From Patescibacteria group bacterium (GTDB lineage Bacteria; Patescibacteriota; Minisyncoccia; UBA10092), in NCBI GenBank assembly GCA_018826255.1, contig JAHJZO010000029.1, forward strand, positions 1 to 54,587: 54,587 nt of DNA, written 5' to 3'. The notes beneath the pieces are model-generated. The model did not search any database. It had not been told where the DNA came from and saw only the letters and a program-made list of their open reading frames with translations. Below are positions 22,982-38,341 of the stretch, in pieces. Within the stretch, counting starts at the first letter, position 1. Every line of letters starts with the position of its first letter. Made by a program: the position numbers and the translations under genes.

Positions 22982-23006
22982 AAATGCCCGCATTACGCGG
23001 GCATTT
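22982..23006. terminator. bidirectional hairpin terminator between convergent genes
   Basis: AAATGCCCGC-ATTAC-GCGGGCATTT. Confidence 0.7.
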
Positions 23007-23706
23007 AAATTATTCTGGCTAAATTAATTATGGTTTTTCCGATGAGAAAAACATTTTTCCAATTGATAACATTTGATTTTCCGTATACTCTTTCTTGATT
23101 ACAGAAGGGGACCTCCACATATGAAATTTTTTTCTTAACCAATTGAATCAGTATCTCTGCCATATAAGCGGGGCTGTCGGTGGTCATTGAAACCGTTTTC
23201 AATATATCGCGTTTAAAAAAACATGGGCCGTTAAAATATTTCAGATGTAAGCCGAAAAGAGCATTAAATGTCATAGTATAACTTCGTGACAACATTGAAC
23301 GAAAAAACGTGCGCTGTTGAGGATTGGCGACATAAGGAATGATGACATCGGTTTTCCCGATTTGTTCAAAAATTTTTTGTATACTTTCCAAAATTATCTG
23401 GTTATCTCCCGGAAACCAGCCGACATAATCTTTAACGGCGGCGCGGATTCCCGTCCTGATATTGTACCCCAATCCTTTTGGCTTGGGGTTGGACATCACT
23501 TTAATGCATCTGTTGTTGAGTGACAGTTCGGCGGCAACTTTTTCCGTTTCATCCGTTGAGCCGTCATTTATAATAATTATTTCATAATCGGAAAGTTCTT
23601 GATTTTCCAAAGCCAATAAAACATTTTGAATCGTTTTTTCAATGTTACCGGCTTCGTTTAAAGCGGGGATAATTATTGACACGGAATTATTCATGTCTTT
23701 AATCAT
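23005..23706 (-). CDS. GT2 polyprenol-phosphate glycosyltransferase-like (paralog of 32614..33333)
   Basis: VSIIIPALNEAGNIEKT, IIIINDGSTDET. Colinear similarity with the 32614 GT2. Confidence 0.75.
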   Translation of the reverse strand: MIKDMNNSVSIIIPALNEAGNIEKTIQNVLLALENQELSDYEIIIINDGSTDETEKVAAELSLNNRCIKVMSNPKPKGLGYNIRTGIRAAVKDYVGWFPGDNQIILESIQKIFEQIGKTDVIIPYVANPQQRTFFRSMLSRSYTMTFNALFGLHLKYFNGPCFFKRDILKTVSMTTDSPAYMAEILIQLVKKKISYVEVPFCNQERVYGKSNVINWKNVFLIGKTIINLARII

Positions 23707-23746
23707 AAATCAATTCCTTTCTTTGTAAAGATACAAGCCGTTTTTC

Positions 23747-23775
23747 TTGACATCCGCGGTTTTATTTGTTATTAC
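23747..23775 (+). promoter_or_regulatory. candidate promoter for the 23820..26583 operon
   Basis: TTGACA (23747-23752), 17 nt, TATTAC (23770-23775). Confidence 0.4.
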
Positions 23776-23819
23776 AAGTCCATTCAGATCTTTGAAAATT
23801 TAACATAGGGAGGGAAGAT

Positions 23820-24839
23820 ATGCAAACTTTAGTTACCGGTGGAAAGGGTTTTATCGGCAGTCATTTGATTGAAAGATTATTGAACGATGGTCACGAGGTT
23901 GTATGTCTGGATTTGGAAGAAGCGTCCAATCGAAATATTGAATGCTTTCTCCATAATGAAGGTTTCGTTCTAGTCAATAGGAATATTGTTTCTCCTTTTT
24001 CTGTTAGAAATATTAAAGACATTTTACGCGATTACGAAATTGATATAGTTTTCCATTTGGCGGGTCTTGCGGACATTGTTCCGTCAATACAAAATCCTAC
24101 GGAATATTTCGCGACCAATGTCATAGGGACGCTCAATATACTTGAAGCGGCTCGCGAATATGGAAAACTCCAAAAATTTATCTATACTTCTTCATCGTCT
24201 ATTTACGGAATTCCTGAATTTTTTGAAATTCCAACTTCCGAAGAAATTCCGATCAAACCGCAATATCCCTACGCCGAAACAAAATATCAGGGGGAAAGAT
24301 GGGTAAGTCATTATGGCCAAATTTACAAATTGCCCACGATTTCTTTGCGTCTGTTTAATGTCTATGGACCGCGGTCGCGGACAACCGGGACTTACGGCGC
24401 GGTATTCGGGACATTTTTGGCGCAGAAAATAAACGGCAAACCATTCACAGTTGTCGGCGACGGGAGGCAATCAAGGGATTTCACTTTCGTCACGGATGTT
24501 TGCGACGCTTTTGTAAGAGCGGCGGAATCCAAGATATCAGGAGAAGTATTTAATGTCGGCTCCGGAAAACCGCAAACAATTCTGCGATTGGTTGAACTTT
24601 TGGGAGGCGATATTATTCACATCCCCAAAAGGCCGGGCGAACCGGATAAAACTTGCGCCGATATATTGAAGATTAAAAACACGCTCGGTTGGACGCCGAA
24701 AGTTTCGTTTGAGGAAGGCGTGAAAATTATGCTGGATAATATTGATTACTGGAGAAACGCGCCCGTATGGACGCCCAATTCAATCTGGGAAGCGACCAAA
24801 GATTGGTTTGAATTTTTGGGCGGCAAGGAGGGAAAATGA
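23820..24839 (+). CDS. extended-SDR NAD-dependent nucleotide-sugar epimerase/dehydratase
   Basis: VTGGKGFIGSHL Rossmann motif, YAETK catalytic Tyr/Lys. GGGAGGG RBS. Confidence 0.8.
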   Translation: MQTLVTGGKGFIGSHLIERLLNDGHEVVCLDLEEASNRNIECFLHNEGFVLVNRNIVSPFSVRNIKDILRDYEIDIVFHLAGLADIVPSIQNPTEYFATNVIGTLNILEAAREYGKLQKFIYTSSSSIYGIPEFFEIPTSEEIPIKPQYPYAETKYQGERWVSHYGQIYKLPTISLRLFNVYGPRSRTTGTYGAVFGTFLAQKINGKPFTVVGDGRQSRDFTFVTDVCDAFVRAAESKISGEVFNVGSGKPQTILRLVELLGGDIIHIPKRPGEPDKTCADILKIKNTLGWTPKVSFEEGVKIMLDNIDYWRNAPVWTPNSIWEATKDWFEFLGGKEGK

Positions 24840-25474
24840 CAACACTGGCGAAAAAGACTTATCAGGAATTGAGAAATCTCGGCGTTGATAAAGCGGATGA
24901 TTATTTCAGCGCGCTGACCGGTATCTTGAAAAAAGTGCGCGTAACTTCATGCGCGCTCGAAACGGGAAACGCGCTGGAAATAAATTATGCCATTAATATA
25001 GTCGCCAATTGCTTGCGCGGCGCCCTTTTGGACAAGAAAAAATTTATTGCTGTTGGCAATGGTGGTTCGGCGGCAATCGCAATGCACGCGCTTGTCGATT
25101 ACGCCAACGCCGGCGGTTTGCAAACAATGGATTTAATGAATCCGGCATTAGTTACCTGCATGGCAAATGATTATGGGTATGAAAAGGTTTTTGCCAAAAA
25201 CATAGAAATGCATGTTGAAGAAAGCGATGTTTTGTTTGCCATCTCAAGTTCGGGCCAATCGCCTAATATTCTTTCAGCTTGCGACGCGGCAGACATAGGG
25301 TGCAAAATAATTACCTTTTCCGGCTTCAGCCCGGAAAATCCTTTGAGGAAATTAGGAAGTATAAATTTTTACGTTCCTTCTAGCCATTATGGGTTTGTGG
25401 AACTGGCCCATCAGATACTTATCCATTGTATTTTGGATTTTTACCTAAAAAAACTGATCAAAGAAAGAGGTTGA
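24836..25474 (+). CDS. gmhA: SIS-domain sedoheptulose-7-phosphate isomerase-like (GmhA-like)
   Basis: VGNGGSAAIAMH and AISSSGQSPNIL align with the GmhA pattern CGNGGS...STSGNS. About 210 aa. Confidence 0.65.
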   Translation: MTTLAKKTYQELRNLGVDKADDYFSALTGILKKVRVTSCALETGNALEINYAINIVANCLRGALLDKKKFIAVGNGGSAAIAMHALVDYANAGGLQTMDLMNPALVTCMANDYGYEKVFAKNIEMHVEESDVLFAISSSGQSPNILSACDAADIGCKIITFSGFSPENPLRKLGSINFYVPSSHYGFVELAHQILIHCILDFYLKKLIKERG

Positions 25475-25479
25475 TTCTC

Positions 25480-26583
25480 ATGAATAGAATGATTTTAGAC
25501 GGCCATAAACTATTGTGGCACAGAGAAAGGGTTGAAGCGTGGCATGGGGGCGAGAGAATAGCGCCGATTACCATTGATTGCGCCTTAACGAGAAGATGCA
25601 CTTATCGATGCGCCTATTGTTATGGTCAGTTGCAGGCAAATGATGAAAGGAAAATGACCAAAGATATTATTTTTCGTTTTCTTGATGACGCGGCCGAAAT
25701 TAGCGTTAAAGCAATTAGTTTTGTCAGTGACGGAGAGAGTACATGTTCTCCCCACCTATATGACGCTATTTTGCGCGGTAAGAAAAATGGTCTTGATATA
25801 GCGTTGGGAACTAACGGCTATTTGCTGAAAGAGGAAAATTTAGAGGAGATTCTTGCTTGCCTTACTTATCTCCGTTTCAATATCTCTGCCGCGGAACCAT
25901 CTAGTTACGCGAGAATAATGGGGTGCAAGGAAGAATGTTTTTTGGTGGTCCGCGATAATGTCAAAAAATGCGTAGAAATTAAAAAGAAAAATAATCTTGA
26001 CGTTACTATTGGCTTGCAAATGGTTCTTTTACCTAGTTTTAAGGACCAAATAATTCCTTTGGCGGAACTTGGTAAGGAGTTGGGCGTAGATTACTTTGTC
26101 ATCAAACATTGTAGTGATGACGAGAGTCATACCCTTGGGATTGATTATTCAAAATATTTTGGGTTGACCGGATTGTTGGAAGAGGCAGAGTCATATTCGG
26201 AAAGCGATTATCTGGTGAAAGCTAAATGGTCCAAAATTTTAAGCAGGGGCGAGAGAAAATATTCTCAATGTTATGGACCGGCTTTCATCATGCAGTTTTC
26301 CGGTTCCGGCCTGGTCGCTCCTTGCGGCATGCTGTTTAACAGAAAATATAAAAAATATCACATAGGAAATATCGCGAATGTTTCTTTTAAGAAAATATGG
26401 CAAAGTGAAAGATACTGGGAAGTGATTAATTTGATTGGCTCGGAAAAATTTGATGCCAGAACAATGTGCGGGTCGCTATGCCTTCAGCACAAGGCAAATG
26501 AATTTCTGTGGGATTTGAAAAACGGAAAAGCAGTGTTAAGAGATACACATGGGGAACTACCCATGCATATAAACTTTGTTTAA
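25480..26583 (+). CDS. radical SAM enzyme with Cys-containing C-terminal region
   Basis: CTYRCAYC cluster motif. Additional C-terminal cysteines (QCYGP...APCG...MCGSLC). ATG 25480 follows AGAAAGAGG. Confidence 0.75.
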   Translation: MNRMILDGHKLLWHRERVEAWHGGERIAPITIDCALTRRCTYRCAYCYGQLQANDERKMTKDIIFRFLDDAAEISVKAISFVSDGESTCSPHLYDAILRGKKNGLDIALGTNGYLLKEENLEEILACLTYLRFNISAAEPSSYARIMGCKEECFLVVRDNVKKCVEIKKKNNLDVTIGLQMVLLPSFKDQIIPLAELGKELGVDYFVIKHCSDDESHTLGIDYSKYFGLTGLLEEAESYSESDYLVKAKWSKILSRGERKYSQCYGPAFIMQFSGSGLVAPCGMLFNRKYKKYHIGNIANVSFKKIWQSERYWEVINLIGSEKFDARTMCGSLCLQHKANEFLWDLKNGKAVLRDTHGELPMHINFV

Positions 26584-26604
26584 CGGGCGCTTGACGCCCG
26601 TTTT
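26582..26604 (+). terminator. rho-independent terminator
   Basis: AACGGGCG-CTTGA-CGCCCGTT followed by TT. Confidence 0.7.
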
Positions 26605-26677
26605 AATTTGTTGTATGTTTCGGGCATAAAATTTTTTGGCACTTTTAAAAAATAATAACGAAGGAGGAGATACCATA

Positions 26678-28231
26678 ATGGCCCTGAATCGCAAGATAAA
26701 GACATTGGAAGAATTTATTGTTGAATTGAAAAAGTTGAGAAATTCCGGTAAAAAAATCATACACTGCCACGGAGTATTTGACTTGGTGCATATCGGCCAC
26801 ATCCGCCATTTTTCCATCGCCAAGGCCTTGGGGGATATTTTAGTGGTTACAATCACTCCGGACCAATACGTGAACAAGGGCCCAGGCAGGCCGGTATTTA
26901 CGGAGGCTCTCCGCGCCGAATATATTGCGGCGCTTGAGCCGGTTGATTACGTAATAATCAACAATTGGCCGACGGCGGTTGAAATAATAAAGGCGATTAA
27001 ACCGGATGTTTATGTTAAAGGCCAAGATTACGCGGACTCTGAAAAAGACGAGACCGGAGGGATACACTGTGAAAGAGAAGCGGTTGAATCGGCGGGCGGG
27101 AAGATCCACTTTACCGGCGATATTACTTTTAGTTCCAGCTCGCTTCTTAACGAATATTTTGATATTTATCCCAGAGAAGCCCAGGATTTTTTAGCCGGTT
27201 TTCGGAAAAAATATTCAGCCGAAAAAGTCATTGAAATGCTGAAAAGTTTGAAATCAATGAAAGTTTTGATTATTGGTGAAACGATTCTGGATAAATATCT
27301 TTTTATGGCTCCGATGATGGGCAGGCCGCTAAAGGGGAATCACATTGCCGCCAGAACTATTGGGGAAGAAACCCACGCCGGAGGTATTCTGGCCTGCGCC
27401 AATCACTTGGCGAATTTTTGCGGCAATGTTGATTTGATAACAGCCATTGGTAATAACGGAAATGAAGAATTCGTCAGGGCGCATCTCAAATCAAATATAA
27501 ATCTCCAGTTATTTTATCATGATGTCGCGCCGACAATTGTTAAAAGGCGATTCATAGAAACTTCTTTCAGGTCCAAATTATTCGAAGAATATATTCTTGA
27601 CGACAGGCCGTCGCCGGAGCTAGATGAGAAAATAATGAGCTATCTGCGCGGCATTCCAAGAGACCTCGTTTATGATTTGATTCTTGTTTTGGATTACGGC
27701 CACGGGCTGATCACTCCACGGCAAATAGATTTTCTCTGCAACCAGAGATTTGATTTTTTGGCGGTAAATGCTCAAACAAACACCGCCAATATGGGATTTA
27801 ATTTGATAACAAAATATCCCAGAGCCAACTATTTTTGCCTGGATGATATAGAACTGAGATTGGCTTTTCACGACAATTACAGTGAATCGGCGAAAATTAT
27901 AACGCGTTTAGCGGATAGGGCTTCAAGCTCCAGAGCTTATATGTCCAGGGCCGTCGCGGTTACATTGGGGCATTTAGGGTCAATGGTCTATGACGCGAAA
28001 AAAAATGAACTCTGCAAGGCGCCGGTGTTGTCCCAGAAAATCGTTGATACCACCGGAGCCGGAGATGCGTTTTTCGCGTTAACCGCTCCCTGCGTCGCCA
28101 AGGGATTTTCCATGGATTTAGTGGCTTTTATAGGCAACGCGGCTGGAGCTTTGGCCGTTGGCTATTTAGGCAACCAGAAATCAATTGAAGCGACTCCGTT
28201 TTTCAAATTCATAACGGCTTTGCTTAAATAA
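26678..28231 (+). CDS. bifunctional nucleotidyltransferase (N-terminal) / PfkB sugar kinase (C-terminal); HldE/RfaE-like with reversed domain order
   Basis: N-terminal HGVFDLVHIGHIRHF (HxGH cytidylyl/adenylyltransferase motif). C-terminal KVLIIGETILDKY and DTTGAGDAF (PfkB). GGAGGAG RBS. Confidence 0.7.
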   Translation: MALNRKIKTLEEFIVELKKLRNSGKKIIHCHGVFDLVHIGHIRHFSIAKALGDILVVTITPDQYVNKGPGRPVFTEALRAEYIAALEPVDYVIINNWPTAVEIIKAIKPDVYVKGQDYADSEKDETGGIHCEREAVESAGGKIHFTGDITFSSSSLLNEYFDIYPREAQDFLAGFRKKYSAEKVIEMLKSLKSMKVLIIGETILDKYLFMAPMMGRPLKGNHIAARTIGEETHAGGILACANHLANFCGNVDLITAIGNNGNEEFVRAHLKSNINLQLFYHDVAPTIVKRRFIETSFRSKLFEEYILDDRPSPELDEKIMSYLRGIPRDLVYDLILVLDYGHGLITPRQIDFLCNQRFDFLAVNAQTNTANMGFNLITKYPRANYFCLDDIELRLAFHDNYSESAKIITRLADRASSSRAYMSRAVAVTLGHLGSMVYDAKKNELCKAPVLSQKIVDTTGAGDAFFALTAPCVAKGFSMDLVAFIGNAAGALAVGYLGNQKSIEATPFFKFITALLK

Positions 28232-28236
28232 GAAAC

Positions 28237-28260
28237 AACCCCGCAAGCTTGCGGGGTTTT
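28237..28260 (+). terminator. rho-independent terminator (CCCCGCAAGCTTGCGGGG type)
   Basis: Perfect 18-nt palindrome at 28239-28256 followed by TTTT. Confidence 0.8.
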
Positions 28261-28323: not shown

Positions 28324-29340
28324 ATGTCTAAGAAAATCTTAGTTATCGGAGGCGCCGGTTATGTCGGCAGCGCTCTGGTGCCAAAATTGTTGGACGCGGG
28401 GCACTATGTCCGTGTTTTGGACACATTTTGGTTCGGCGATGGTGTATTTAATGATTGGATTTTGAAAAATAGCCGAACAAGCATAAACAGATTGGGATTT
28501 GTTAAGGGCGATATTCGTAATTGTGATTTGGAACAAGCGATGAGAGACGTAGATTGCGTTATTCATCTGGCTTGCATTTCAAACGATCCGAGTTTTGAAC
28601 TCAATCGTGATTTAGGCCGTTCAATAAATTATGACGCGTTTTTGAAAGTTATCATAGCGGCGCAAGAGAGTAAAATCGGGCGTTTTATTTTTGCTTCTTC
28701 CAGTTCCGTTTATGGCGTCAAAAATACGCCGAACGTTACGGAAGATATGTGCCTTGAACCGCTGACGGATTATTCAAAATACAAAGCGTTTTGTGAAATG
28801 GAGCTTCAAATGATTCCAACCGAAAAATTGCCCTGGGTAATTATTCGCCCGGCGACGGTCTGCGGCTACGCGCCGCGCATGAGGTTGGATTTATCGGTTA
28901 ATATCCTGACGATGGCGGCTTTAACAAAGGGAAAAATCATGGTTTTCGGCGGATCACAGATCCGTCCCAATATCCATATTGAAGACATGACGGATTTGTA
29001 TGTTCGGCTGGTTAACGAAGAGGACGATAGAATAATCGGTCGGACATTCAATGCCGGCGGGAGTAATCTCAGCATTGAGACAATCGCCGAGCTGGTAAAG
29101 AAAATCATTGAACAATGCATGGCGAAGAAAATCGAAATTGAAAAAGTACCGACCTGGGATTTGCGTTCTTATCATGTTTCGTCGGCAAAGATAGAACGCC
29201 AGCTTGGCTGGCAAACCATTCGCGATGTACCGGATGCCGTTGTTCATTTGATGAAAGCATTCAACGCCGGATTGATTCCGAATCCCGACGACCCGAAATA
29301 CAGCAATATCAAAACAATGAAAGTGTTGAAAATCCAATAA
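28324..29340 (+). CDS. extended-SDR NAD-dependent nucleotide-sugar epimerase/dehydratase
   Basis: VIGGAGYVGSAL, YSKYK. ATG 28324 follows GGAGGTG. Confidence 0.75.
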   Translation: MSKKILVIGGAGYVGSALVPKLLDAGHYVRVLDTFWFGDGVFNDWILKNSRTSINRLGFVKGDIRNCDLEQAMRDVDCVIHLACISNDPSFELNRDLGRSINYDAFLKVIIAAQESKIGRFIFASSSSVYGVKNTPNVTEDMCLEPLTDYSKYKAFCEMELQMIPTEKLPWVIIRPATVCGYAPRMRLDLSVNILTMAALTKGKIMVFGGSQIRPNIHIEDMTDLYVRLVNEEDDRIIGRTFNAGGSNLSIETIAELVKKIIEQCMAKKIEIEKVPTWDLRSYHVSSAKIERQLGWQTIRDVPDAVVHLMKAFNAGLIPNPDDPKYSNIKTMKVLKIQ

Positions 29341-29351: not shown

Positions 29352-30482
29352 ATGGGCGAAGCAAAAGTTCACTATAATTATTTAGACAAGCAATTTAAGA
29401 TTGGAGGGCCTCTGGTAAAGCAGATTCTTGAAGATATTGAAGGACTTGTCAAAACCGGCCAGTTTACTCTCGGCCCGCAAGTCGCGGAGTTCGAAAAAGA
29501 GTTTGCGAAAATTTGCGGCGTCAAGTACGCGATCGGCATCAATTCGGGAACGGACGCTCTGATTCTCATCTTGAGAGCCCTGGGCATTGGATTGGGCGAT
29601 GAAGTCATCACCCAACCGAATAGTTTTATCGCTACGGCAAATGCCATCAGATTTGTCGGCGCCAAACCGGTTTTCGTCGACGTGACTGATGATTACATGA
29701 TTAACCATCTTCAGATCGAAAAGGCCGTTACGTCCAAGACGAAAGCCATATTGCCGGTTCACTTGACCGGGAATCCGGCGGGCATTGTCTGCGCCTCTGA
29801 AATTGCAAAAAGACGCAATCTTTTTCTGATAGAGGATGCGTGTCAGGCCATCGATTCATCAGTTAATGGAAAAATGGCCGGAAGCTGGGGGATCGCTGGG
29901 GCGTTCAGCCTCCACCCTTTGAAAAATCTCAATGTATGGGGCGATGGCGGAATGGTTACCACCGATGACGGCGAGCTGGCAATGAAGATTACCTTAATGC
30001 GCAATCATGGGCTGGAAACAAGGGATGATTGCGTGATGGTTGCCGGCAACTGCCGATTGCACACCATTCAGGCCGTCATCGGTTTGCGATTAATTACGGA
30101 CGTTCCCAGGATTTCCAGCAGCAGAATTATGAACGCCACGATGTATAGCAAGTATTTGGCCGATGTTGATGGGGTAAAGCTTCCTCCGCGCTTTGCCAAT
30201 GTGCGGCAGGTGTACCACACATTTGTCATTCAGGTTAAGAAGCGCGACGAACTGCAAAAATTTCTGGAACGCAACGGAGTTGAAGTTAAAGTTCATTACC
30301 CGATTCCGATTCATCTGCAGAAACCGTATCTGGAAATGGGATACAAAAAGGGCGATTTTCCCGATTGCGAAAAGCAATCAGAAAATATTATTTCTCTGCC
30401 CATTCATCAGTACTTATCGGCATCGCAGATTATGAAAGTAATTAATTTAATCAGAAAATTTTACGGCGCGAAAACCGTATAA
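29352..30482 (+). CDS. DegT/DnrJ/EryC1/StrS-family PLP-dependent sugar aminotransferase
   Basis: GINSGTDALIL. FSLHPLKNL carries the PLP-binding Lys. Confidence 0.85.
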   Translation: MGEAKVHYNYLDKQFKIGGPLVKQILEDIEGLVKTGQFTLGPQVAEFEKEFAKICGVKYAIGINSGTDALILILRALGIGLGDEVITQPNSFIATANAIRFVGAKPVFVDVTDDYMINHLQIEKAVTSKTKAILPVHLTGNPAGIVCASEIAKRRNLFLIEDACQAIDSSVNGKMAGSWGIAGAFSLHPLKNLNVWGDGGMVTTDDGELAMKITLMRNHGLETRDDCVMVAGNCRLHTIQAVIGLRLITDVPRISSSRIMNATMYSKYLADVDGVKLPPRFANVRQVYHTFVIQVKKRDELQKFLERNGVEVKVHYPIPIHLQKPYLEMGYKKGDFPDCEKQSENIISLPIHQYLSASQIMKVINLIRKFYGAKTV

Positions 30483-30490: not shown

Positions 30491-30518
30491 TCCCCCGCCA
30501 TGGCGGGGGACTTTTTTT
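30491..30518 (+). terminator. rho-independent terminator
   Basis: TCCCCCGCCATGGCGGGGGA followed by CTTTTTTT. Confidence 0.8.
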
Positions 30519-30596: not shown

Positions 30597-31562
30597 ATGA
30601 GCGTAAATGAGCTTTTGAAATTGTATTTTGAAATGTTGAGGATAAGGATGGTTGAAGAGAGATTGACCGATTGGTGCAATAAAAAGTTGGTAAACGCGCC
30701 GGTCCATCTCTCAATTGGTCAGGAGGCCGTGGCAGTTGGAATTATGGCGGCTTTGAACCCCGAGGATAAAATTATTTCAGGCCATCGTTGCCACGCGCAT
30801 TATCTTGCCAAGGGCGGCGATTTAAAAAAAATGTTTGCCGAAATTCTCGGTAAAGCCACAGGTTGCTGCAAAGGCAAGGGCGGCACGATGCATCTTTTTG
30901 ACGATGAAGCCGGCCATGTGATTTCGGCCCCGCTTGTTGCCGCCAGCATTTCATTTGGAGTCGGTCTCGCGCTTTCTTTCAAAATGAAAGGCGAAAATAA
31001 AATAGCAGTTGTGTTTCTGGGCGACGGAGCGGTTGAGGAGGGAATTTTTTGGGAAAGCATCAATTTTGCTTCGGTGTTTCATCTGCCCGTTTTGTTCGTT
31101 TGCGAGAATAATCTTTACGCCACTCATTCGCACATTTTACAACGCCAACCGTCGGAAAATATCACTGAACGCGTAAGACCGCATAAGGTAAACGCGCATC
31201 GCATCAATGACGGAAATAATGTTTTTCTCGTAAGGGAAATTGCCAAGGCAAAGGTTGAATTAGTCAGAAAAGGCCAGCCATGTTTTATTGAGGCCTGTAC
31301 ATACCGGCTCCGAGAACACTGGGGAGTAGGTGAAGATTGGGATCTCGGTTACCGCAGCCGGGAAGAAGGGGAAAAGTGGATGGAAAAATCCCCGCTGAAA
31401 CAAGCTGAAAAAACGTTTTTGAATCGCATCAGCGCGCCGATGCTTCATTCGAAAATTAAAAAAATGGAAGAGGCGATAAAAAAAGAAATTGACGAAGCGG
31501 AAGAATTCGCGTTCAATAGTCCGCAGCCGCCAAAAGAAGATTTACTATCGGAGGTGGGATAA
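30597..31562 (+). CDS. ThDP-dependent 2-oxoacid dehydrogenase E1 component, alpha subunit-like
   Basis: GDGAVEEGIFWESINFASVFHLPVLFVCENNLYA (ThDP-binding GDG...NN motif). Confidence 0.8.
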   Translation: MSVNELLKLYFEMLRIRMVEERLTDWCNKKLVNAPVHLSIGQEAVAVGIMAALNPEDKIISGHRCHAHYLAKGGDLKKMFAEILGKATGCCKGKGGTMHLFDDEAGHVISAPLVAASISFGVGLALSFKMKGENKIAVVFLGDGAVEEGIFWESINFASVFHLPVLFVCENNLYATHSHILQRQPSENITERVRPHKVNAHRINDGNNVFLVREIAKAKVELVRKGQPCFIEACTYRLREHWGVGEDWDLGYRSREEGEKWMEKSPLKQAEKTFLNRISAPMLHSKIKKMEEAIKKEIDEAEEFAFNSPQPPKEDLLSEVG

Positions 31563-32545
31563 TGGGAATGAGAAAGATAACCTATAAAGACGCTTCAGCC
31601 GAAGCATTGCTGATGGCGATGGAGGAAGATAAAAATGTATTTCTTATCGGCGAAGGCGCCGACCATATTAACGGTATTGGCGGGCAGTGCTTACCGGCCA
31701 TCAGAAAATTTCCCGACAGAGTTATTGATACGCCGCTTTCCGAAAACGGACTGACCGGTTTTTGCGTCGGCGCCGCGCTGAATGGAATGAGGCCGGTTTT
31801 AATTCACCAGCGAGACGATTTTATGCTGTTAGCGATGGACCAAATGTTCAATCAAGCGGCCCAGTTACGATATGCTTCCGGCGGCCGCCATAGGGTTCCG
31901 TTAACTATTTTAAGTTTTATTGCCCGCCGTCCCGGAGAGGGAGTTACGCATAGCCACAGCTTGCAGTCCATTTTTGCCCATTTTCCGGGTATTAAAGTCG
32001 GAATGCCGGCAACCGCTATGGATGCCAAGGGAATGCTTTTAAGGGCTATTTTTGACGATGATCCTGTAATAATTCTTGAACACAGACATAATCCACTTTA
32101 TAACCGCGAAGAATATGTCCCAGCAGAGCATTACGAAACATCTCTTTCGTCTCGAGTGGTGCTTTTGGGGGACGACATCACGATTGTAACAATATCCATT
32201 ACCCTTCTTGACGCATTAAAAGCGTCTTACGATTTCCTTCTGGAGAAGGTTATTTTTCCTGAAATTATTGATTTAAGATGGCTTCGGCCGCTTAATATTG
32301 AACCGATTATTCAATCAGTGAAAAAAACAGGAAAACTTTTGGTTGTTGATACCGGCTGGAAATCGTGCAGCATTTCTTCGGAAATCGTCGCTCTGGTCGC
32401 CGAGCAGGCGCATGGACATCTCAAATGTCCGCCGCGAAGAATCGCTTTACCCGACGCTCCCTGCCCGGCCAGTCAATATTTAGAGCCGTTGTACCATCCC
32501 AATTCCGAGATGATAATCCAGGCCGTTGAAGAAATGGTTAAATAA
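31562..32545 (+). CDS. E1 component beta subunit-like (transketolase pyrimidine-binding + C-terminal domain)
   Basis: TAATG overlap with the alpha gene. FLIGEG...DTPLSENGLTGFCVGAALNGMRPV is typical of E1 beta. Confidence 0.8.
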   Translation: MGMRKITYKDASAEALLMAMEEDKNVFLIGEGADHINGIGGQCLPAIRKFPDRVIDTPLSENGLTGFCVGAALNGMRPVLIHQRDDFMLLAMDQMFNQAAQLRYASGGRHRVPLTILSFIARRPGEGVTHSHSLQSIFAHFPGIKVGMPATAMDAKGMLLRAIFDDDPVIILEHRHNPLYNREEYVPAEHYETSLSSRVVLLGDDITIVTISITLLDALKASYDFLLEKVIFPEIIDLRWLRPLNIEPIIQSVKKTGKLLVVDTGWKSCSISSEIVALVAEQAHGHLKCPPRRIALPDAPCPASQYLEPLYHPNSEMIIQAVEEMVK

Positions 32546-32551
32546 TTTACG

Positions 32552-32575
32552 CCCCCGCAAGCTTGCGGGGGTTTT
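32552..32575 (+). terminator. rho-independent terminator (CCCCGCAAGCTTGCGGGG type)
   Basis: CCCCCGCAAGCTTGCGGGGG followed by TTTT. Confidence 0.8.
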
Positions 32576-32613: not shown

Positions 32614-33333
32614 ATGAATAAATCTATTTCAATAATTATTCCGGCGTATAACGAGGAAACAAAATTAAAACCGACAGTTGATTCGGTTTTGGATCGCCTG
32701 GAAAATAACGCAATTTCCGATTTTGAGATTATTATTTTCAATGACGCTTCAACCGACAGGACGGGCGAAGTCGCCGATGATTTGGCGATGCAATTTTCTC
32801 AAGTTAAGGTGGTTCATAATGCCAAGAATATGAATCTTGGATTTAACATTGTCAGAGGTTTCCAATTGGCAACCAAAGAGTATGCCGGATTCGTTCCGGG
32901 TGATAACGAAACTGCTCCCGAGGCGCTGGATAATATTTTTCAGGCCATAGGAAAAGCGGATATTGTCATTCCTTACATACAAAATCCCGAAGTCAGAATC
33001 TGGGGCAGGCGGATTCTTTCAAAAACTTATATTGCGATAATAAATACGGCTTTCGGATTAAAAATACGATATTACAACGGTATGTGTTATTTCAAAACCG
33101 AAATGGTAAAAAAAGTCACGGTTTCTACTCACGGCTTTGCGTACATGACCGAAATATTAGTCAAACTTTTAAAATCAGGCGCTACTTTTGTTGAAGTGCC
33201 GATGATAAACAGAGCAAGAGAAAGAGGAGCAACCAAAGCGTTTAGGATTAAGAACATTGCAAGTGTTTTCAAAACGTTTTTAACTCTTTTCTGGGAAGTC
33301 CAGATTTTAAGAAAACGAATAAATCTGTCTTGA
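32614..33333 (+). CDS. GT2 polyprenol-phosphate glycosyltransferase-like
   Basis: ISIIIPAYNEE, IIIFNDASTDRT. Paralog of 23005..23706. Confidence 0.75.
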   Translation: MNKSISIIIPAYNEETKLKPTVDSVLDRLENNAISDFEIIIFNDASTDRTGEVADDLAMQFSQVKVVHNAKNMNLGFNIVRGFQLATKEYAGFVPGDNETAPEALDNIFQAIGKADIVIPYIQNPEVRIWGRRILSKTYIAIINTAFGLKIRYYNGMCYFKTEMVKKVTVSTHGFAYMTEILVKLLKSGATFVEVPMINRARERGATKAFRIKNIASVFKTFLTLFWEVQILRKRINLS

Positions 33334-33407: not shown

Positions 33408-34682
33408 ATGAAAGTAATGCTGATAACCCTTCCGAAGGAAGGGCAAACGAAGGACTTCACTACGCCGTCATTTTATTCATCAAATCCTGTGCGCTATATC
33501 CCTCTCGGGATATTGGCGGTCGCCACCAGCATATCGCCGGACCATGATATCCGGATATTAGACGCCGACAGTTATGGTCTTTCCATTGATTACACCGTAA
33601 GAAGAATCAATGAATTCGCGCCTGACGTTCTCGGAATCAGCGCAGTTACCAGAAAAGCATTTGCAATGAGCAAAATTCTAAAACGGGCTAACGTTTCGTT
33701 AAAAGTTGTCGGAGGTCCGCATGTTACGCATTATGCCAAGGAAACAATAAATTTAGGGGCCGACGCGACATTCAAGCATGATAGCGACCGAAATTTCAAT
33801 GAATGGCTCAATACAGGGTGTAAAAGAGGCATTTATGAGGATTATATTAGAAATATCGATTCTCTGCCGTTTATCAGAAGGGAATTTTCCGGGTTTGAAT
33901 TGGAAGATTATATGTTAAGCGGGGAAGACACGCAAAAAACGCTGTTCAAGCAAAAAAGCTTGAGGCGTCTCGCAATGATGAGTTCCAAGGGCTGTCCTTT
34001 CCGATGCGTTTTCTGCGACGTTCAGGATAAAGAATTTCGTTTTCTGTCTCCCCAAAGAGTTGTCGATGAGATGGAGCACCTTTTGTCTTGCGGCGCGAAT
34101 TCCATCCATATTCTTGACGATTGCTTCAACACCGACAGCAACAGAGTTATTAAAGTGTGCGAGGAGATTAAAAAAAGGGGACTAAAATTCCAGTGGAGTT
34201 GCAGAGGAAGGGCAGTTTTGGACAGGACCACGGCCGAAGCTCTCCAATCAGCCGGTTGCGTCAGAATGCATGTCGGGATAGAAAGCTTGAATCCGGAAGT
34301 GCTCAAATGGATGAACAAAAGAATAACGGTTGAAACGACAGGAGAGTTTTGTGATCTATGCAACGAATACGGCATAGAAATTGTCGCCTATTTTGTCCTT
34401 GGCGCGCCCATGGAAACAAGAGAATACCGCGAAAAACTTCCGGATATGATCCGCGAGTTGAAAATCAAGTATCCCTTTTTCAACATCCTGTATCCTTCGG
34501 CTAACACGAAATATTACCGAGAGCTGATGGCCAATGGAACATATAAAATGGATTATTGGCAGGCATTCGCCGAAAAGCCAGTGCCCAATTTTGAAATACC
34601 TCTTCCTCGCTCAGAGGAGTTGCAGGATGAGTTGGAAAAAACGGCCGAAAGGTGCATAAAAATATTTTTCAATGGAGGTTAA
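33408..34682 (+). CDS. class B (cobalamin-binding domain) radical SAM enzyme
   Basis: N-terminal B12-binding-like domain, then KGCPFRCVFCDV. Confidence 0.75.
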   Translation: MKVMLITLPKEGQTKDFTTPSFYSSNPVRYIPLGILAVATSISPDHDIRILDADSYGLSIDYTVRRINEFAPDVLGISAVTRKAFAMSKILKRANVSLKVVGGPHVTHYAKETINLGADATFKHDSDRNFNEWLNTGCKRGIYEDYIRNIDSLPFIRREFSGFELEDYMLSGEDTQKTLFKQKSLRRLAMMSSKGCPFRCVFCDVQDKEFRFLSPQRVVDEMEHLLSCGANSIHILDDCFNTDSNRVIKVCEEIKKRGLKFQWSCRGRAVLDRTTAEALQSAGCVRMHVGIESLNPEVLKWMNKRITVETTGEFCDLCNEYGIEIVAYFVLGAPMETREYREKLPDMIRELKIKYPFFNILYPSANTKYYRELMANGTYKMDYWQAFAEKPVPNFEIPLPRSEELQDELEKTAERCIKIFFNGG

Positions 34683-34684
34683 TA

Positions 34685-35683
34685 ATGACCCAAAGAATCG
34701 CGATTATTGGCAGCAATTCTTTTTCCGGCAGTCACCTGGTTGATTTTTTTCTGAAAAATTCAAATTGGGAAGTAATCGGCTTAAGCCGATCACCGGAATA
34801 TCCCGCGCTATTTTTGCCTTATCTTTATCAAAAAGAAAGGTCTCTGAGATTCAAATTTTTTCAGGTAAACATAAATACGCAGCTTCCGGACATTGTTCAT
34901 CTATTTGACATCATGAAGCCGGAGGTCATTGTTAATTTTGCCGCGCAGGGCAACGTCCAGTACAGCTGGAATCATCCGGAGCATTGGCTTATGACCAATA
35001 CGCTTGGCGTGGCGAGTTTGGCATTCGCCTTGCGCGACAAGCCGTACTTAAAAAGATTTATCCAAATTTCAACTCCGGAAATTTACGGGCTTTGTCGCAA
35101 TTATCAGGAGGATTCCAACTGTTACAATCCTTCAACACCGTATGCAGTTTCCAAGGTAGCCGGCGATTTGTTTCTAATGGCAATGTTTAAGAAATTTAAG
35201 TTTCCGGTTTCTTTTATCAGATCGGTTAATGTGTATGGCATTCACCAGCAACTGTATAGAATAATTCCGAGAACGATTATTTTTTTGAAAAAAGGCATTC
35301 CAGTTCCGCTTCATGGCGGGGGAAAAACGCAAAGAAGCTTCATTCATATATCGGATGTTTGCCATGGAATCCACAGCGTTATTCTTAATGGTAAAGCGGG
35401 AGAGGCGTATCACTTTTCCGGCGGGAATACAATGGAAATAAGAAACTTGGTAGAATTAATTTGCCAAAAAATGAATCGCGATTTTGAAATGTCAACCGAA
35501 ATAACCGAAGATAGGGCAGATCAGGACCCCATGATTGATTTAGATTGTTCCAGGACAAAAGAGGGAATCCTCTGGCAGCCCCAGATTGAACTCTACAATG
35601 GCATTGATGAAGTGGCTCGATGGATTAACGAAAATTGGGAAGAAATTATAAAATATCCATTTGAATATATTCATCAAGAGTAA
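34685..35683 (+). CDS. extended-SDR NDP-sugar 4,6-dehydratase-like
   Basis: IIGSNSFSGSHL, YAVSK, GGGKTQRSFIHISDV (RfbB/Gmd-like pattern). ATG 34685 follows GGAGG. Confidence 0.6.
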   Translation: MTQRIAIIGSNSFSGSHLVDFFLKNSNWEVIGLSRSPEYPALFLPYLYQKERSLRFKFFQVNINTQLPDIVHLFDIMKPEVIVNFAAQGNVQYSWNHPEHWLMTNTLGVASLAFALRDKPYLKRFIQISTPEIYGLCRNYQEDSNCYNPSTPYAVSKVAGDLFLMAMFKKFKFPVSFIRSVNVYGIHQQLYRIIPRTIIFLKKGIPVPLHGGGKTQRSFIHISDVCHGIHSVILNGKAGEAYHFSGGNTMEIRNLVELICQKMNRDFEMSTEITEDRADQDPMIDLDCSRTKEGILWQPQIELYNGIDEVARWINENWEEIIKYPFEYIHQE

Positions 35684-35703
35684 CCCCGCAACCGCGGGGT
35701 TTT
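35684..35703 (+). terminator. rho-independent terminator
   Basis: CCCCGC-AACC-GCGGGG followed by TTTT. Confidence 0.75.
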
Positions 35704-35707
35704 AATT

Positions 35708-35737
35708 TTGACAGGGAGTTAATTTTATGTTTATATT
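35708..35737 (+). promoter_or_regulatory. sigma70-like promoter for the 35789..38341 operon
   Basis: TTGACA (35708-35713), 18 nt, TATATT (35732-35737). Confidence 0.45.
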
Positions 35738-35788
35738 GCCACGAATCTTATTTCTTTAAAAATTTTAATACGATGAGGAGAATCTCTA

Positions 35789-36676
35789 ATGAAAAGCGAC
35801 AGAAGAAGGCGAAAAATTGTAATATTGGGTCATACAGGTTTTCTGGGAAGTTGTCTTTACGAGAATTTCAGCAAAGAAATTGAGTATGAAGTTTATGGGT
35901 TTTCTTCGGCTAATGTAAATTTATCGTCATCAAAAGAATGCCAAAAATTGTTGAGCGTTATTGATAAAAACAGTACCGTCATAATGACGGCGACATCTCT
36001 GGTTAAGAATAAGGACTTTATTTCCTTCAGGAATGATTTTGACATGTTACTTAATACTGCCGAAGTTTTTTCTTTGGCGGGCATCCAACATTTGATTTAT
36101 ATCAGTTCTATTGCGGTATTTGGCCGTCATTCTGAATCAGTAATAACCGAATCAAGTTATCCGAATCCGGATGACCTTTATAGTTTTTCTAAACTTTTAG
36201 GCGAGCAAATTTTTGAACGTATTTGTCGCAATTCCGGAATTCACCTAACAATTTTACGCCCTGGAACTTTTTATGGCCTCAATGATAAGACGAGTCCCTT
36301 TTTTAGATTCTTGGGAGGCATTAAAAGTAACGGGGAAATTAAAATTTATGGTGATGGTTCTTCAAAACTTTTCTGGGTTCACAAAGTGGACTTGTGTCGC
36401 ATAATCCAAGCGGCTGTCGCGAGTTGCAATCCTGGGATTTATAACATTGTTACAGAGAGCGAAGGTATTTCTTTGTTAAAACTTGCAGAATTGATGTTTC
36501 AAATTTGCGCTCTCGGGCATCGGATTAAGATTGAATTTATTCCAAGCGCAAAAGTTCCCGTTGATTTGCGGTTTGATATATCAAAATCAAAATCCTGTTT
36601 TTCAGGGATAAAACATATTAAATTGGAAGATGGTTTAAAAGAATATCTCAATCAAACTGACAAAAAGGAGGAATAA
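35789..36676 (+). CDS. extended-SDR NDP-sugar reductase/epimerase (RmlD/DmhB-like)
   Basis: ILGHTGFLGSCL, YSFSK. GAGGAG RBS. Confidence 0.6.
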   Translation: MKSDRRRRKIVILGHTGFLGSCLYENFSKEIEYEVYGFSSANVNLSSSKECQKLLSVIDKNSTVIMTATSLVKNKDFISFRNDFDMLLNTAEVFSLAGIQHLIYISSIAVFGRHSESVITESSYPNPDDLYSFSKLLGEQIFERICRNSGIHLTILRPGTFYGLNDKTSPFFRFLGGIKSNGEIKIYGDGSSKLFWVHKVDLCRIIQAAVASCNPGIYNIVTESEGISLLKLAELMFQICALGHRIKIEFIPSAKVPVDLRFDISKSKSCFSGIKHIKLEDGLKEYLNQTDKKEE

Positions 36677-36678
36677 CA

Positions 36679-37332
36679 ATGGCAGAAATAAATTTACTGG
36701 ATACTTACCCCAAAGAAAATCGCGACGTTGAGGGACGATTTAAGCAAATCACGAAAGAACATCACAAAATTGCCCGTCAATTCGGAGAGGAATTTTTTGA
36801 AGGCGACAGATTAGTCGGCTACGGAGGGTATATCTATGACGGCCGGTGGGCGAGCGTAGTTAAAAGATTCAGGGATCACTATGGGCTGACTTCTGAAAGT
36901 AGTGTCCTTGATATAGGTTGCGCCAAGGGATTCATGCTTCATGACTTCCAGCGGATTATTCCCGGCATCAAAGTGGCGGGAATAGATATTTCCGCTTACG
37001 CGATCGCCAACGCCAAAGAAAGCGTTAAAGCGTTCGCGCGGGTAGGCAATGCGAAAGAATTGCCTTTTCCCGATAAATCGTTTGACCTGGTAGTTTCTAT
37101 TACCACACTTCATAATCTGCCTATTAAAGAATGCAAACAGGCGATTCGCGAAGTGCAAAGAGTATCGCGAAAACACGCTTTTATTACTCTTGATTCCTGG
37201 CGCAACGAATACGAATGCGAGAGGATGATAAAGTGGAATTTGACAGCGCTGACCTATATGAGCGTTGAGGACTGGAAGAAATTATTCACCGAAGTCGGTT
37301 ATACCGGTGATTACTACTGGTTTATTCCATAG
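36679..37332 (+). CDS. class I SAM-dependent methyltransferase
   Basis: VLDIGCAKGFML motif I. Confidence 0.75.
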   Translation: MAEINLLDTYPKENRDVEGRFKQITKEHHKIARQFGEEFFEGDRLVGYGGYIYDGRWASVVKRFRDHYGLTSESSVLDIGCAKGFMLHDFQRIIPGIKVAGIDISAYAIANAKESVKAFARVGNAKELPFPDKSFDLVVSITTLHNLPIKECKQAIREVQRVSRKHAFITLDSWRNEYECERMIKWNLTALTYMSVEDWKKLFTEVGYTGDYYWFIP

Positions 37333-37342
37333 AGGTGGCGAA

Positions 37343-38341
37343 ATGAAAACTAAAGCGGCGGTTTTAAGAAATATTGGCGGACCATTGATAATTGAGGAAC
37401 TGGAAATCCCCAAATTGGGATTTGGACAGGTTCTTGTAAAAATACTGTATAGCGGACTTTGCCGAAGCCAGCTAAATGAAATTAAAGGATGGAAGGGCAA
37501 AGACCATATTCCTCACCTTTTGGGTCATGAGGCGTCAGGCGAGGTTCTAGAAATTGGAGATAGCGTTTCTAAAGTCAGGCCTGGCGATTATGTCGTATGC
37601 AGTTGGATAAAGGGCGCGGGATTGGATGTTCCGCTTATCAAATATCGCGCGGGCGATGGCAGTGTTGTAAATGCCGGAGCCGTGGCGACATTTTCCCAAT
37701 ACGCGGTTATTTCAGAAAACCGGCTGGTTCCGGTCTCAAGAAAAATTGGCGGTGAAGTGGCGGCCCTTCTGGGTTGCGCCGTGCCAACGGGCGCCGGCGT
37801 GGTTGATCATTCGGATATCCCGCTTGGATCAAAATTAGCCATATTCGGCATTGGGGGCATCGGCGCCAGCGCTTTATTGAAAGCTCTTTCCCTTAAAATA
37901 AGATGCTTTGCTATTGATGTGGCTCAATGGAAATTAGATTGGGCGGAAAAAATTGGAAGTGTTGCTATTCATTTTGATCATGTTAAAAAATATGCGCCCT
38001 TTGATTCTGCGGTTGAATGCAGCGGTAGCAGAACTGCTATGGAGGCAGCTATTAATCTGACTAAGAGTGATGGCGCAGTGATTGTTGCCGGCAACTTGGA
38101 ACCGGGAGAAAAAATTGCTATTGACCCTTTTGATTTAGTAAAAGGTAAAAGGATAAGCGGTACTTGGGGCGGAGGATGTTTTTTGGATGATGATATCCCG
38201 CGCTATGCTTCCGAATATCTCTTCGGTTATCTGTCACTTGAAAATTTAATAACCCGTATTTATTCTTTTGAAAAGATAAATCTGGGATTAGCAGAATTAA
38301 ATTGTGGTGAATTAATCCGGGGAATTGTAAAAATTTCCTGA
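37343..38341 (+). CDS. zinc-type medium-chain alcohol dehydrogenase/reductase
   Basis: GHEASGEVLEIG zinc motif, GLCRSQ, FGIGGIGASAL Rossmann loop. ATG 37343 chosen inside the track ORF. Confidence 0.8.
   Translation: MKTKAAVLRNIGGPLIIEELEIPKLGFGQVLVKILYSGLCRSQLNEIKGWKGKDHIPHLLGHEASGEVLEIGDSVSKVRPGDYVVCSWIKGAGLDVPLIKYRAGDGSVVNAGAVATFSQYAVISENRLVPVSRKIGGEVAALLGCAVPTGAGVVDHSDIPLGSKLAIFGIGGIGASALLKALSLKIRCFAIDVAQWKLDWAEKIGSVAIHFDHVKKYAPFDSAVECSGSRTAMEAAINLTKSDGAVIVAGNLEPGEKIAIDPFDLVKGKRISGTWGGGCFLDDDIPRYASEYLFGYLSLENLITRIYSFEKINLGLAELNCGELIRGIVKIS

Follow-up and report, generated by a model that had tools for sequence, protein, structure and literature searches.

We describe a block of 15 genes at positions 23005-38341 of a 54,587-nucleotide stretch of DNA from a Patescibacteria group bacterium (contig JAHJZO010000029.1, assembly GCA_018826255.1), the whole of which is called the window below. 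With about even confidence, we read this block as a cassette for a modified nucleotide-heptose that is built from modules, occurs across phyla and is present here in a maximal form. It encodes a GmhA-like SIS isomerase, a nucleotidyltransferase-kinase fusion (NTK), four extended short-chain dehydrogenases/reductases (SDR1 to SDR4), a radical S-adenosylmethionine (SAM)/SPASM enzyme (rSP2), a B12-binding radical SAM enzyme (B12b; a second, B12a, lies upstream), a DegT aminotransferase, a pair of thiamine diphosphate (ThDP)-dependent E1 alpha and beta subunits, a class-I SAM methyltransferase, a zinc-dependent alcohol dehydrogenase (Zn-ADH) and two GT2 glycosyltransferases (GT2a and GT2b). An earlier reading of the sequence, hereafter the original prediction, had listed these open reading frames and domains, and Pfam and NCBIfam profiles recover all of them. 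Catalytic motifs are intact, among them CxxxCxxC in all three radical SAM proteins and YxxxK in all four SDRs.

The original prediction proposed that the block builds a heptose-derived, deoxygenated, aminated, C-branched and/or methylated sugar loaded onto polyprenol phosphate. In outline the evidence described below supports this proposal. That the sugar is truly a heptose, which nucleotide it carries, in what order the steps run and what the three radical SAM enzymes do are points that we infer.

A cassette that recurs across phyla

A genome scan returned full-length NTK matches of 44-54% identity in at least 80 species-level genomes (loci L007-L086). The open reading frames of each locus were translated and assigned to their best match in a query set of window proteins and additional reference proteins; presence percentages refer to the 33 of 80 loci whose flanks reach 8 kb or more on each side. 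Structural comparisons used Foldseek for the AlphaFold2 (AF2) models of GT2b and rSP2.

The 80 NTK loci span more than 15 phyla. Among their hosts are Nitrospirota, Omnitrophota, Elusimicrobia, Chloroflexota, Planctomycetota, Desulfobacterota, Bdellovibrionota, Alpha- and Gammaproteobacteria, Patescibacteria and archaea. Cultured carriers are Azospirillum sp. INR13, Paramagnetospirillum marisnigri SP-1 and Terasakiella sp. PR1. SDR1, the most constant neighbor of NTK, lies directly beside it in 50 of 79 loci and is present in 88% of the well-flanked ones. Any SIS gene occurs in 55% of the latter, and SIS adjoins NTK in 33 of the 37 loci that carry it. A ThDP enzyme, either an E1 pair or a split transketolase, is found in 76% and is close to a core part of the cassette. 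The genes for SDR2 (~55-58%), any radical SAM enzyme (52%), DegT (39%), any GT2 (39%), the methyltransferase (33%) and Zn-ADH are optional modules.

Gene order is kept as well in four contigs of patescibacterial type, in whole in L171 (GCA_016188835.1) and L172 and, for the parts that they cover, in the partial L002 and L170. The shared order runs YfhO, a membrane protein of 551 amino acids (minus strand), B12 radical SAM, SDR1, SIS, radical SAM, NTK, SDR2, DegT, E1 alpha, E1 beta, methyltransferase, Zn-ADH and GT2, and the type of radical SAM enzyme in the slot after SIS differs between genomes. The conserved unit reaches upstream of 23005, since B12a, the 551-residue membrane protein and the YfhO-like gene at 16457-18856 are all syntenic in relatives. 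In three of these relatives, DegT and E1 alpha are separated by two further genes, one for a NUDIX hydrolase and one for a stand-alone nucleotidyltransferase that shares 52% identity with the N-terminal domain of NTK. The pair is absent from the window and might re-activate the sugar with another nucleotide.

This recurrence of order and content across phyla excludes chance adjacency of the block genes, which the original prediction had named as its own undoing. It also makes it highly improbable that unrelated pathways merely lie side by side in the block, with an E1 that serves housekeeping (pyruvate or acetoin metabolism), SDRs of a generic kind and radical SAM enzymes that have no link to them, a view that can draw on the commonness of all these families and on the division of the block by terminators. 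A housekeeping E1 is further opposed by the window itself, among whose scanned open reading frames Pfam detects no E2, E3 or lipoyl gene. Moreover, the E1 pair and the split transketolase alternate exclusively beside NTK, the former in 22 of 80 loci, the latter in 24 and both in none (hypergeometric P = 4e-4, uncorrected for phylogeny). Outside this set, L171 and L172 have a split transketolase (17193-18922) besides E1; the window has E1 only.

Six units, each closed by a GC-rich hairpin, had been proposed for the block, and six hairpins with a T-rich tail were located, which close six units of plus-strand genes. The units so bounded coincide with modules gained and lost elsewhere. A CCCGC..GCGGG pattern is found 10 times in the window, where shuffled sequence would give 0.18, and is thus the usual terminator of this genome. 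Three hairpins (28240-28255, 32554-32569 and 44979-44994) are identical in their core CCCGCAAGCTTGCGGG, the loop of which contains a HindIII site, and hairpins related to this core close most operons of the window. In L170, the closest relative (NTK 89% identical), PaaX_M/Cas2-like and DUF2238-like genes (7424-8898) are inserted at the terminator between rSP2 and NTK, suggesting that unit boundaries act as insertion points. The true starts of SDR2, SDR3 and Zn-ADH are probably the internal ATGs at 28324, 34685 and 37343, because the TTG/GTG starts ahead of them overlap with the gene before or with a terminator; the lengths counted from these ATGs agree with those of homologs.

The proposed nucleotide-heptose core

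NTK carries an HldC-like nucleotidyltransferase domain at its N-terminus and an HldA-like PfkB kinase domain at its C-terminus, which is the reverse of HldE. The fusion itself was correctly predicted, though it had been named with the kinase first. The rfaE_dom_II model matches residues 32-161 with 104 bits and rfaE_dom_I residues 202-514 with 78 bits; E. coli HldE 322-470 (adenylyltransferase) aligns to the N-terminus at 36% identity and HldE 5-308 (kinase) to the C-terminus at 26%. All 120 NTK homologs listed, among thousands of 90%-identity clusters, share the nucleotidyltransferase-then-kinase order, and the HxGH and GAGD motifs are invariant in 11 homologs. On the HldE equivalog model NTK scores 132.6 bits against a cutoff of 521. 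Matches in the PDB comprise 5x9q, 3glv and 4e84. Only the heptose-7-phosphate kinase model and HldA (4e84) cover the whole kinase domain, whereas ribokinase models match only the C-terminal ATP-binding region, and the PfkB domain thus does not group with ribokinases.

An (F/L)xxGRSTT motif, with Arg before STT, marks the CTP/UTP-promiscuous heptose nucleotidyltransferases of the HENase STTR5 subclass (PMC11573728). At this motif NTK reads ITFSSS, with an invariant F151 at the Arg position (aligned by eye), and so falls outside that subclass. Because the Arg tied to CTP/UTP use is replaced by an invariant Phe, our best guess from the sequence is that the product would be an ADP-sugar.

The SIS protein is closest to GmhA, and not to the KpsF or DiaA type, by both models and structures. 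GmhA models score 76-80 bits and DiaA 50, the NCBIfam KpsF/GutQ models gave no match, and among PDB structures GmhA is matched at E 1e-17 and DiaA at 1e-11. A neighbor-joining tree, built with few references and free of support values, places the protein in a 41-member, NTK-linked clade that is sister to E. coli GmhA, DiaA and SIS proteins of the canonical-like type. At least 90% of the clade keep S55, H61, N93-D94, S124, H175 and H180 (E. coli GmhA numbering); the changes are E65 to D, Q172 to E and STS (119-121) to SSS. DiaA lacks E65 and H180. In GmhA, residues S55, H61, E65, D94, S119-T120-S121, S124, Q172 and H180 have catalytic or metal-binding roles. Judged by its residues, the SIS protein is plausibly a divergent and catalytically competent relative of GmhA, not an equivalog; its scores of 80.5 and 76 bits fall below the respective GmhA equivalog cutoffs of 276 and 209. 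In seven loci a canonical GmhA-type SIS protein stands in for the NTK-linked clade.

As the original prediction had noted, the window has no GmhB: the E. coli protein finds no BLAST match among window open reading frames of at least 70 amino acids, and no HAD domain appears in the Pfam scans. GmhB homologs (E 1e-13 to 1e-32) do stand directly beside NTK, SIS or GmhA in L008, L050, L051, L065 and L072; they are adjacent in 5 of 80 loci and present in 7. In E. coli, gmhB is likewise unlinked from gmhA and hldE. Proteins of ~175 amino acids beside SIS in Nitrospirota loci were considered as substitute phosphatases and rejected, being hydrophobic membrane proteins that occur in 4-5 loci and are absent from the window. 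They have no Pfam match and form tandem pairs or triplets in Nitrospirota and Omnitrophota (L004/L005 12339-13390, L173 11109-12840, L174 11118-12163); by analogy with ArnE/ArnF, they could be a small heteromeric flippase.

Heptose as the substrate is what we infer from the SIS active site, the full-length kinase match, GmhB in five relatives and the likeness of SDR2 to a dehydrogenase from a heptose locus (described below). The same cassette logic might instead serve another sugar, for instance a hexose, or an octose like that of lincosamide biosynthesis, or might retain the 7-phosphate. Such a sugar would fit the separate SIS clade with its E65D and Q172E changes, the scores far below equivalog cutoffs, the failure to find GmhB in the window or in ~90% of related loci and the altered HENase motif. 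We nevertheless consider it unlikely. The best and only full-length matches are heptose enzymes, canonical GmhA or GmhB replaces or joins the cassette in several loci, SDR2 points the same way, and the unlinked gmhB of E. coli shows the same dispersal.

Compared with the GmhA/HldE nucleotide-heptose pathway, the block shares an SIS_2 protein with a GmhA-like site, PfkB and nucleotidyltransferase domains in one protein, an adjacent SDR and, in some relatives, GmhB. It differs in its domain order, its separate SIS clade, a GalE/UXS-like SDR1, a host of the candidate phyla radiation (CPR) and the lack of GmhB in the window.

Predicted branching and amination, and the radical SAM enzymes

The E1 alpha subunit has the GDG...NN ThDP motif from residue 142, and its best NCBIfam match, pyruvate dehydrogenase E1 alpha, reaches 278 bits against a cutoff of 394. 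In the biosynthesis of avilamycin and paulomycin, E1 alpha/beta pairs that lack E2 or E3 have been proposed to use pyruvate for an acetyl branch at C-4; a ketoreductase (Pau7) then yields the hydroxyethyl group, and YerE acts for yersiniose (PMC4753412). In gene make-up, on which the comparison with AviB1/AviB2 and Pau11/Pau12 is based, the block likewise places an E1 pair free of E2/E3 among sugar genes, next to a methyltransferase and a candidate ketoreductase. Unlike the Avi, Pau and YerE enzymes, which act on dTDP- or CDP-6-deoxyhexoses in actinomycetes or Yersinia, the pair in the block has a heptose as its predicted acceptor. The near-core position of a ThDP enzyme lends weight to the predicted C-branching. 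Zn-ADH orthologs occur in six loci, always beside the methyltransferase, a ThDP gene or SDR3, which fits the role of a branch-ketone reductase. Orthologs of the methyltransferase (37-62% identity) are found in 19 of 80 loci, often beside ThDP genes. Bradyrhizose was followed as a lead and dropped; the sole paper found calls its genes unknown and names no transketolase or radical SAM gene.

Four extended SDRs including a 4,6-dehydratase-like one had been predicted. All four are present, and SDR3 is the only one that looks like a 4,6-dehydratase. Its motifs are STPEIYG and YAVSK, its ten best PDB matches are all dTDP-glucose 4,6-dehydratases, whose Thr/Glu/Tyr/Lys pattern it has, and TIGR01181 gives 184 bits (cutoff 365). 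SDR1 and SDR2 look like epimerases or oxidases, because SSS replaces the D/E catalytic motifs. SDR1 (motifs TSSSSIYG and YAETK) matches UDP-glucose 4-epimerase 7ys8 best (E 6e-54). It was rejected as an HldD ortholog, GalE and UXS being best and no ADP-heptose 6-epimerase being found in the best 60 PDB matches.

SDR2 matches 6vo6/6vo8 at 124 bits, followed by the next structure at 80, and is 33% identical to 6vo6. The 6vo6 sequence, rebuilt from the alignment, is found in the C. jejuni chromosome at 96% identity, and a GmhA gene lies 1-4 kb away from it. In L185, from a Desulfobacterales genome, E1 alpha, E1 beta, DegT and a B12 radical SAM gene come after a 6vo6-like SDR, with no NTK nearby; the ThDP module is thus tied to a dehydrogenase of the 6vo6 type where NTK is missing. 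DegT, with the lysine motif SLHPLK, scores 248 bits on PseC, 199 on ArnB and 182 on DesI, each below cutoff, and adjoins SDR2 in 11 of 24 loci. This recurrent pair, together with the resemblance of SDR2 to the C. jejuni heptose-locus dehydrogenase, strengthens the prediction that the sugar is aminated.

Two known pathways offer parallels. In the modification of C. jejuni capsular GDP-heptose, the C4-dehydrogenase Cj1427, the 4,6-dehydratase DdahA, epimerases and C4-reductases take part (PMC10680097, PMC7949155). C4 oxidation of a nucleotide-heptose followed by diversification through SDRs would be common to both systems, the block having SDR2, the 4,6-dehydratase-like SDR3 and the reductase-like SDR4. 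However, C. jejuni makes GDP-alpha-heptose with HddA (a GHMP kinase) and HddC and employs no ThDP enzyme, radical SAM enzyme or heptose-branch aminotransferase. In septacidin biosynthesis, the heptose derived from ADP-heptose is oxidized at C4' by SepI and transaminated by SepG, with SepJ and SepA as epimerases (PMC9978623). SepI and SepG parallel the logic of SDR2 and DegT, but septacidin is an actinomycete secondary metabolite tailored on a nucleoside scaffold, with no C-branching, radical SAM enzyme or lipid carrier.

Among the radical SAM enzymes, rSP2 is far better conserved than the proteins encoded around it. Identity to its homologs in Omnitrophota, Nitrospirota, Auribacterota and Patescibacteria is 74-91%, whereas the neighbors reach 45-55%, and its mean column identity is 81% over 16 sequences. 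Such conservation suggests either very strong constraint or recent spread. Homologs of rSP2 are found in L014, L022, L025, L035-L038, L043, L173 and L174, and rSP2 elsewhere adjoins a GT2 gene. Foldseek returns DesII first for its AF2 model (E 2e-12, TMq 0.54-0.61), then anSME, SkfB, BlsE, MoaA and viperin. On the rSAM_desII profile it scores 36 bits, the cutoff being 450, which places it outside the DesII family. B12a (motif CPFTCNFC; syntenic in L170-L172) scores 147 bits on HpnJ against a cutoff of 578; B12b scores 112 bits on HpnJ and 74 on AprD4, both below cutoff, and matches AprD4 in the PDB (6fd2, E 7e-18).

These matches raise the question of whether DegT and a radical SAM enzyme form a DesI/DesII-type pair, in which transamination is followed by radical deamination and the final sugar is deoxygenated and not aminated. 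DesII is the best structural match of rSP2 and is among its weak sequence matches, and DegT reaches 182 bits on the DesI model. Yet rSP2 orthologs sit mostly in loci that lack DegT, beside GT2, DegT pairs with SDR2 instead, and the rSP2 model is of limited confidence. We judge the DesI/DesII arrangement improbable and retain amination as the role of DegT.

Proposed lipid loading, genomic setting and proposed pathway

The AF2 model of GT2b has a predicted local distance difference test (pLDDT) score of 90. Its top 25 Foldseek matches are ArnC, GtrB and DPMS (including that of Pyrococcus), with E 1e-14 to 4e-11 and TMq 0.61-0.78; the best other GT2 enzyme is at 5e-11. This predicted fold lends support to loading of the sugar onto polyprenol phosphate. 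GT2b homologs in Patescibacteria are 70-92% identical, and GT2a, which is 43% identical to GT2b, is syntenic in L170. In three-component glycosylation, a polyprenyl-phosphate GT2 (CsbB/GtlA/GtrB/ArnC) works with a flippase and a GT-C glycosyltransferase (YfhO/GtlB/ArnT) (PMC7389260, PMC8035078). The block resembles these systems in the fold of GT2b and in having YfhO-like proteins nearby, one of them syntenic with the cassette. It departs from them in that GT2a and GT2b are free of transmembrane helices, no GtrA-type flippase was identified and the likeness to YfhO is confined to the C-terminus.

Lipid loading could also mean that the end product is a modified glycolipid and that the radical SAM enzymes remodel a lipid-linked sugar, as HpnI/HpnJ do in hopanoid cyclitol ether formation. 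In 11 of 23 loci GT2 is the immediate neighbor of a radical SAM gene, and HpnJ is the best-scoring model for both B12a and B12b. In an Omnitrophica genome (L173 13079-17024), genes for IspH, a flavin reductase, a polyprenyl synthase and a UbiA prenyltransferase border the cassette, a hint that the product is a glycolipid or has a lipid carrier of its own. However, the HpnJ scores are far under the cutoff, the isoprenoid genes appear in one locus only, and the three YfhO-like proteins, Wzx, Wzy_C/TPR protein and polyprenyl glycosylphosphotransferase of the window are typical of surface glycan assembly. A glycolipid end product is thus rather improbable in our estimation, and a sugar destined for a surface glycan is the reading we carry forward.

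The host is CPR-like, as predicted: the glyceraldehyde-3-phosphate dehydrogenase of the window is nearest to Patescibacteria metagenome-assembled genomes (59-65% identity), and the nearest named NTK and GT2b homologs are from Azambacteria, Parcubacteria and Paceibacterota. The block sits within a glycan island of ~42 kb, and housekeeping genes follow after 46 kb. The island encodes three YfhO-like polytopic proteins, GT4 glycosyltransferases, Wzx, a TylC3-type C-methyltransferase, many other methyltransferases, a PIG-L deacetylase, a Wzy_C/TPR protein and a polyprenyl glycosylphosphotransferase (TIGR03025 289 bits, cutoff 296). The YfhO-like protein upstream of the block has 9-11 hydrophobic segments and a YfhO gene at the same position in L171 and L172; its paralogs lie at 2715-5081 and 13137-15596. 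Orthologs of the 551-residue membrane protein, for which neither Pfam nor NCBIfam gives a match, keep its place and orientation in L002 (61% identity), L170, L171 and L172 (Table 1).

Table 1. Genes and terminators of the block, neighboring genes in the window and an insert in three related loci
Feature	Position	Strand	Evidence or remark
GT2a, short GT2 glycosyltransferase	23005..23706	-	Pfam Glycos_transf_2, 94 bits
SDR1, GalE/UXS-like extended SDR	23820..24839	+	Pfam Epimerase, 203 bits
GmhA-like SIS isomerase, NTK-linked clade	24836..25474	+	Pfam SIS_2, 52 bits
rSP2, radical SAM/SPASM	25480..26583	+	Pfam Radical_SAM and SPASM; CTYRCAYC motif
Terminator hairpin, unit 1	26582..26602	+	
NTK, CTP_transf_like and PfkB fusion	26678..28231	+	Pfam
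Terminator hairpin, unit 2	28237..28258	+	
SDR2, extended SDR	28324..29340	+	Longer call from 28249
DegT/PseC-type pyridoxal phosphate-dependent sugar aminotransferase	29352..30482	+	Pfam DegT, 345 bits
Terminator hairpin, unit 3	30491..30510	+	
E1 alpha, ThDP-binding subunit	30597..31562	+	E1_dh, 186 bits
E1 beta	31562..32545	+	Transket_pyr and Transketolase_C
Terminator hairpin, unit 4	32551..32572	+	
GT2b, polyprenyl-phosphate-glycosyltransferase-like fold (predicted)	32614..33333	+	GT2 family; AF2 model
B12b, B12-binding radical SAM	33408..34682	+	Pfam B12-binding 40.6 bits, Radical_SAM 84 bits
SDR3, 4,6-dehydratase-like (RmlB-like) SDR	34685..35683	+	Longer call from 34652
Terminator hairpin, unit 5	35682..35701	+	
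SDR4, RmlD/GDP-fucose-synthase-like reductase or epimerase	35789..36676	+	Pfam Epimerase 90, RmlD_sub_bind 50 bits
Class-I SAM methyltransferase	36679..37332	+	Pfam Methyltransf_11/25/31
Zn-ADH	37343..38341	+	ADH_N and ADH_zinc_N; longer call from 37265
Terminator hairpin, unit 6	38350..38366	+	
YfhO-like polytopic membrane protein, putative GT-C glycosyltransferase	16457..18856	+	Partial Pfam YfhO
Polytopic membrane protein, 551 amino acids, candidate lipid-linked-sugar transferase	19642..21297	-	~7 hydrophobic segments
B12a, B12-binding radical SAM	21390..22979	+	Radical_SAM 70 bits, B12-binding 22.7 bits (weak)
Polyprenyl glycosylphosphotransferase (Bac_transf)	38385..39722	-	Convergent with block; Pfam 184 bits
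Nucleotidyltransferase and NUDIX insert	L002 10742-11893; L171 13786-14957; L172 13792-14943		Related loci

Other features of the island stand apart from the cassette. A TylC3-type sugar C-methyltransferase (Methyltransf_13/14) with a small FdtA/WxcM-like cupin at 5802-7501 suggests a second, separate deoxysugar pathway. At 45056-46450, a truncated UDP-glucose/GDP-mannose dehydrogenase of 211 amino acids, which lacks most of its N-terminal domain and its whole C-terminal domain, adjoins an IS200-like Y1 transposase on the opposite strand; the gene was probably broken by the insertion. GC content is 0.41-0.46 in the block (24001-38000); the upstream DNA lies at 0.34-0.38 in one comparison and its membrane-protein genes (12001-22000) at 0.33-0.36 in another. 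We do not take this shift as a sign of recent transfer, since 42-48 kb is also at 0.41-0.43 and the low-GC genes mostly encode membrane proteins. Scans of the window for tRNA genes and Rfam families found nothing.

Several points count against the cassette reading and have to be set beside the evidence above. Every protein scores below its NCBIfam equivalog cutoff. In the core, the SIS protein falls outside GmhA in the tree and has the E65D and Q172E changes, the NTK kinase domain is ~25% identical to HldE, SDR1 is not HldD-like, and neither the window nor most relatives encode a phosphatase. Regarding the tailoring enzymes, 6vo6 is probably the GDP-heptose C4-dehydrogenase Cj1427, as judged by locus context and unconfirmed by papers or by a database label, and the rSP2 model is of moderate confidence (pLDDT 70). 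As for lipid loading, GT2a and GT2b have no transmembrane segment, unlike GtrB and ArnC (GT2b has a C-terminal helix, 212-231, only), and the YfhO matches in Pfam are limited to the C-terminal ~55-60 residues; some DPM1 enzymes are likewise devoid of a transmembrane helix. Finally, the co-occurrence counts are corrected neither for phylogeny nor for truncated contigs.

The gene set suggests the following route. From homology and context, the GmhA-like SIS protein would convert sedoheptulose-7-phosphate to heptose-7-phosphate, the HldA-like domain of NTK would phosphorylate C1, a GmhB-type phosphatase, encoded not in the window but beside the cassette in some relatives, would remove the 7-phosphate, and the HldC-like domain would then make the nucleoside diphosphate (NDP)-heptose. 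SDR1 may epimerize or oxidize this product, SDR2 may generate a 4-keto intermediate for amination by DegT, and SDR3 may open a 4,6-dehydration route. With ThDP and pyruvate, E1 alpha/beta would furnish a keto-sugar with a two-carbon (acetyl) branch, in the way put forward for AviB1/AviB2 and Pau11/Pau12; Zn-ADH would reduce the branch ketone, and the methyltransferase and SDR4 would complete the sugar. Further C-methylation, dehydration or redox steps could fall to rSP2, B12a and B12b. GT2a and GT2b would load the product or products onto polyprenyl phosphate, and, after flipping, the YfhO-like proteins and the 551-residue polytopic protein may transfer them to a surface polymer or protein.

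We tentatively go one step further, with clearly less than even confidence. The cassette may yield an undescribed nine-carbon, C-branched, amino- and/or deoxy-heptose, its two-carbon unit coming from pyruvate (E1) or from a ketose donor (split transketolase), for surface display in the CPR and many uncultured lineages; rSP2, tightly linked to GT2, may perform new radical chemistry on an NDP- or lipid-linked sugar. The parts are of known kinds, and their combination was not found described in the open-access literature that was searched.

CPR/Patescibacteria live attached to host cells and their surface glycans are almost unstudied; the block represents a concrete, conserved and testable pathway for one such glycan. 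The occurrence of the core (permuted HldE, SDR1, a ThDP enzyme and, in most cases, a radical SAM enzyme) in a few cultured Alphaproteobacteria makes its biochemistry feasible in tractable organisms. NDP-heptoses are known innate immune agonists (PMC11461863). If the reading is correct, the cassette would be a further source of NDP-heptose, would extend the few known ThDP-dependent systems for sugar C-branching by one that works on heptose and would reveal a function for a radical SAM family that is ~75% identical across phyla.

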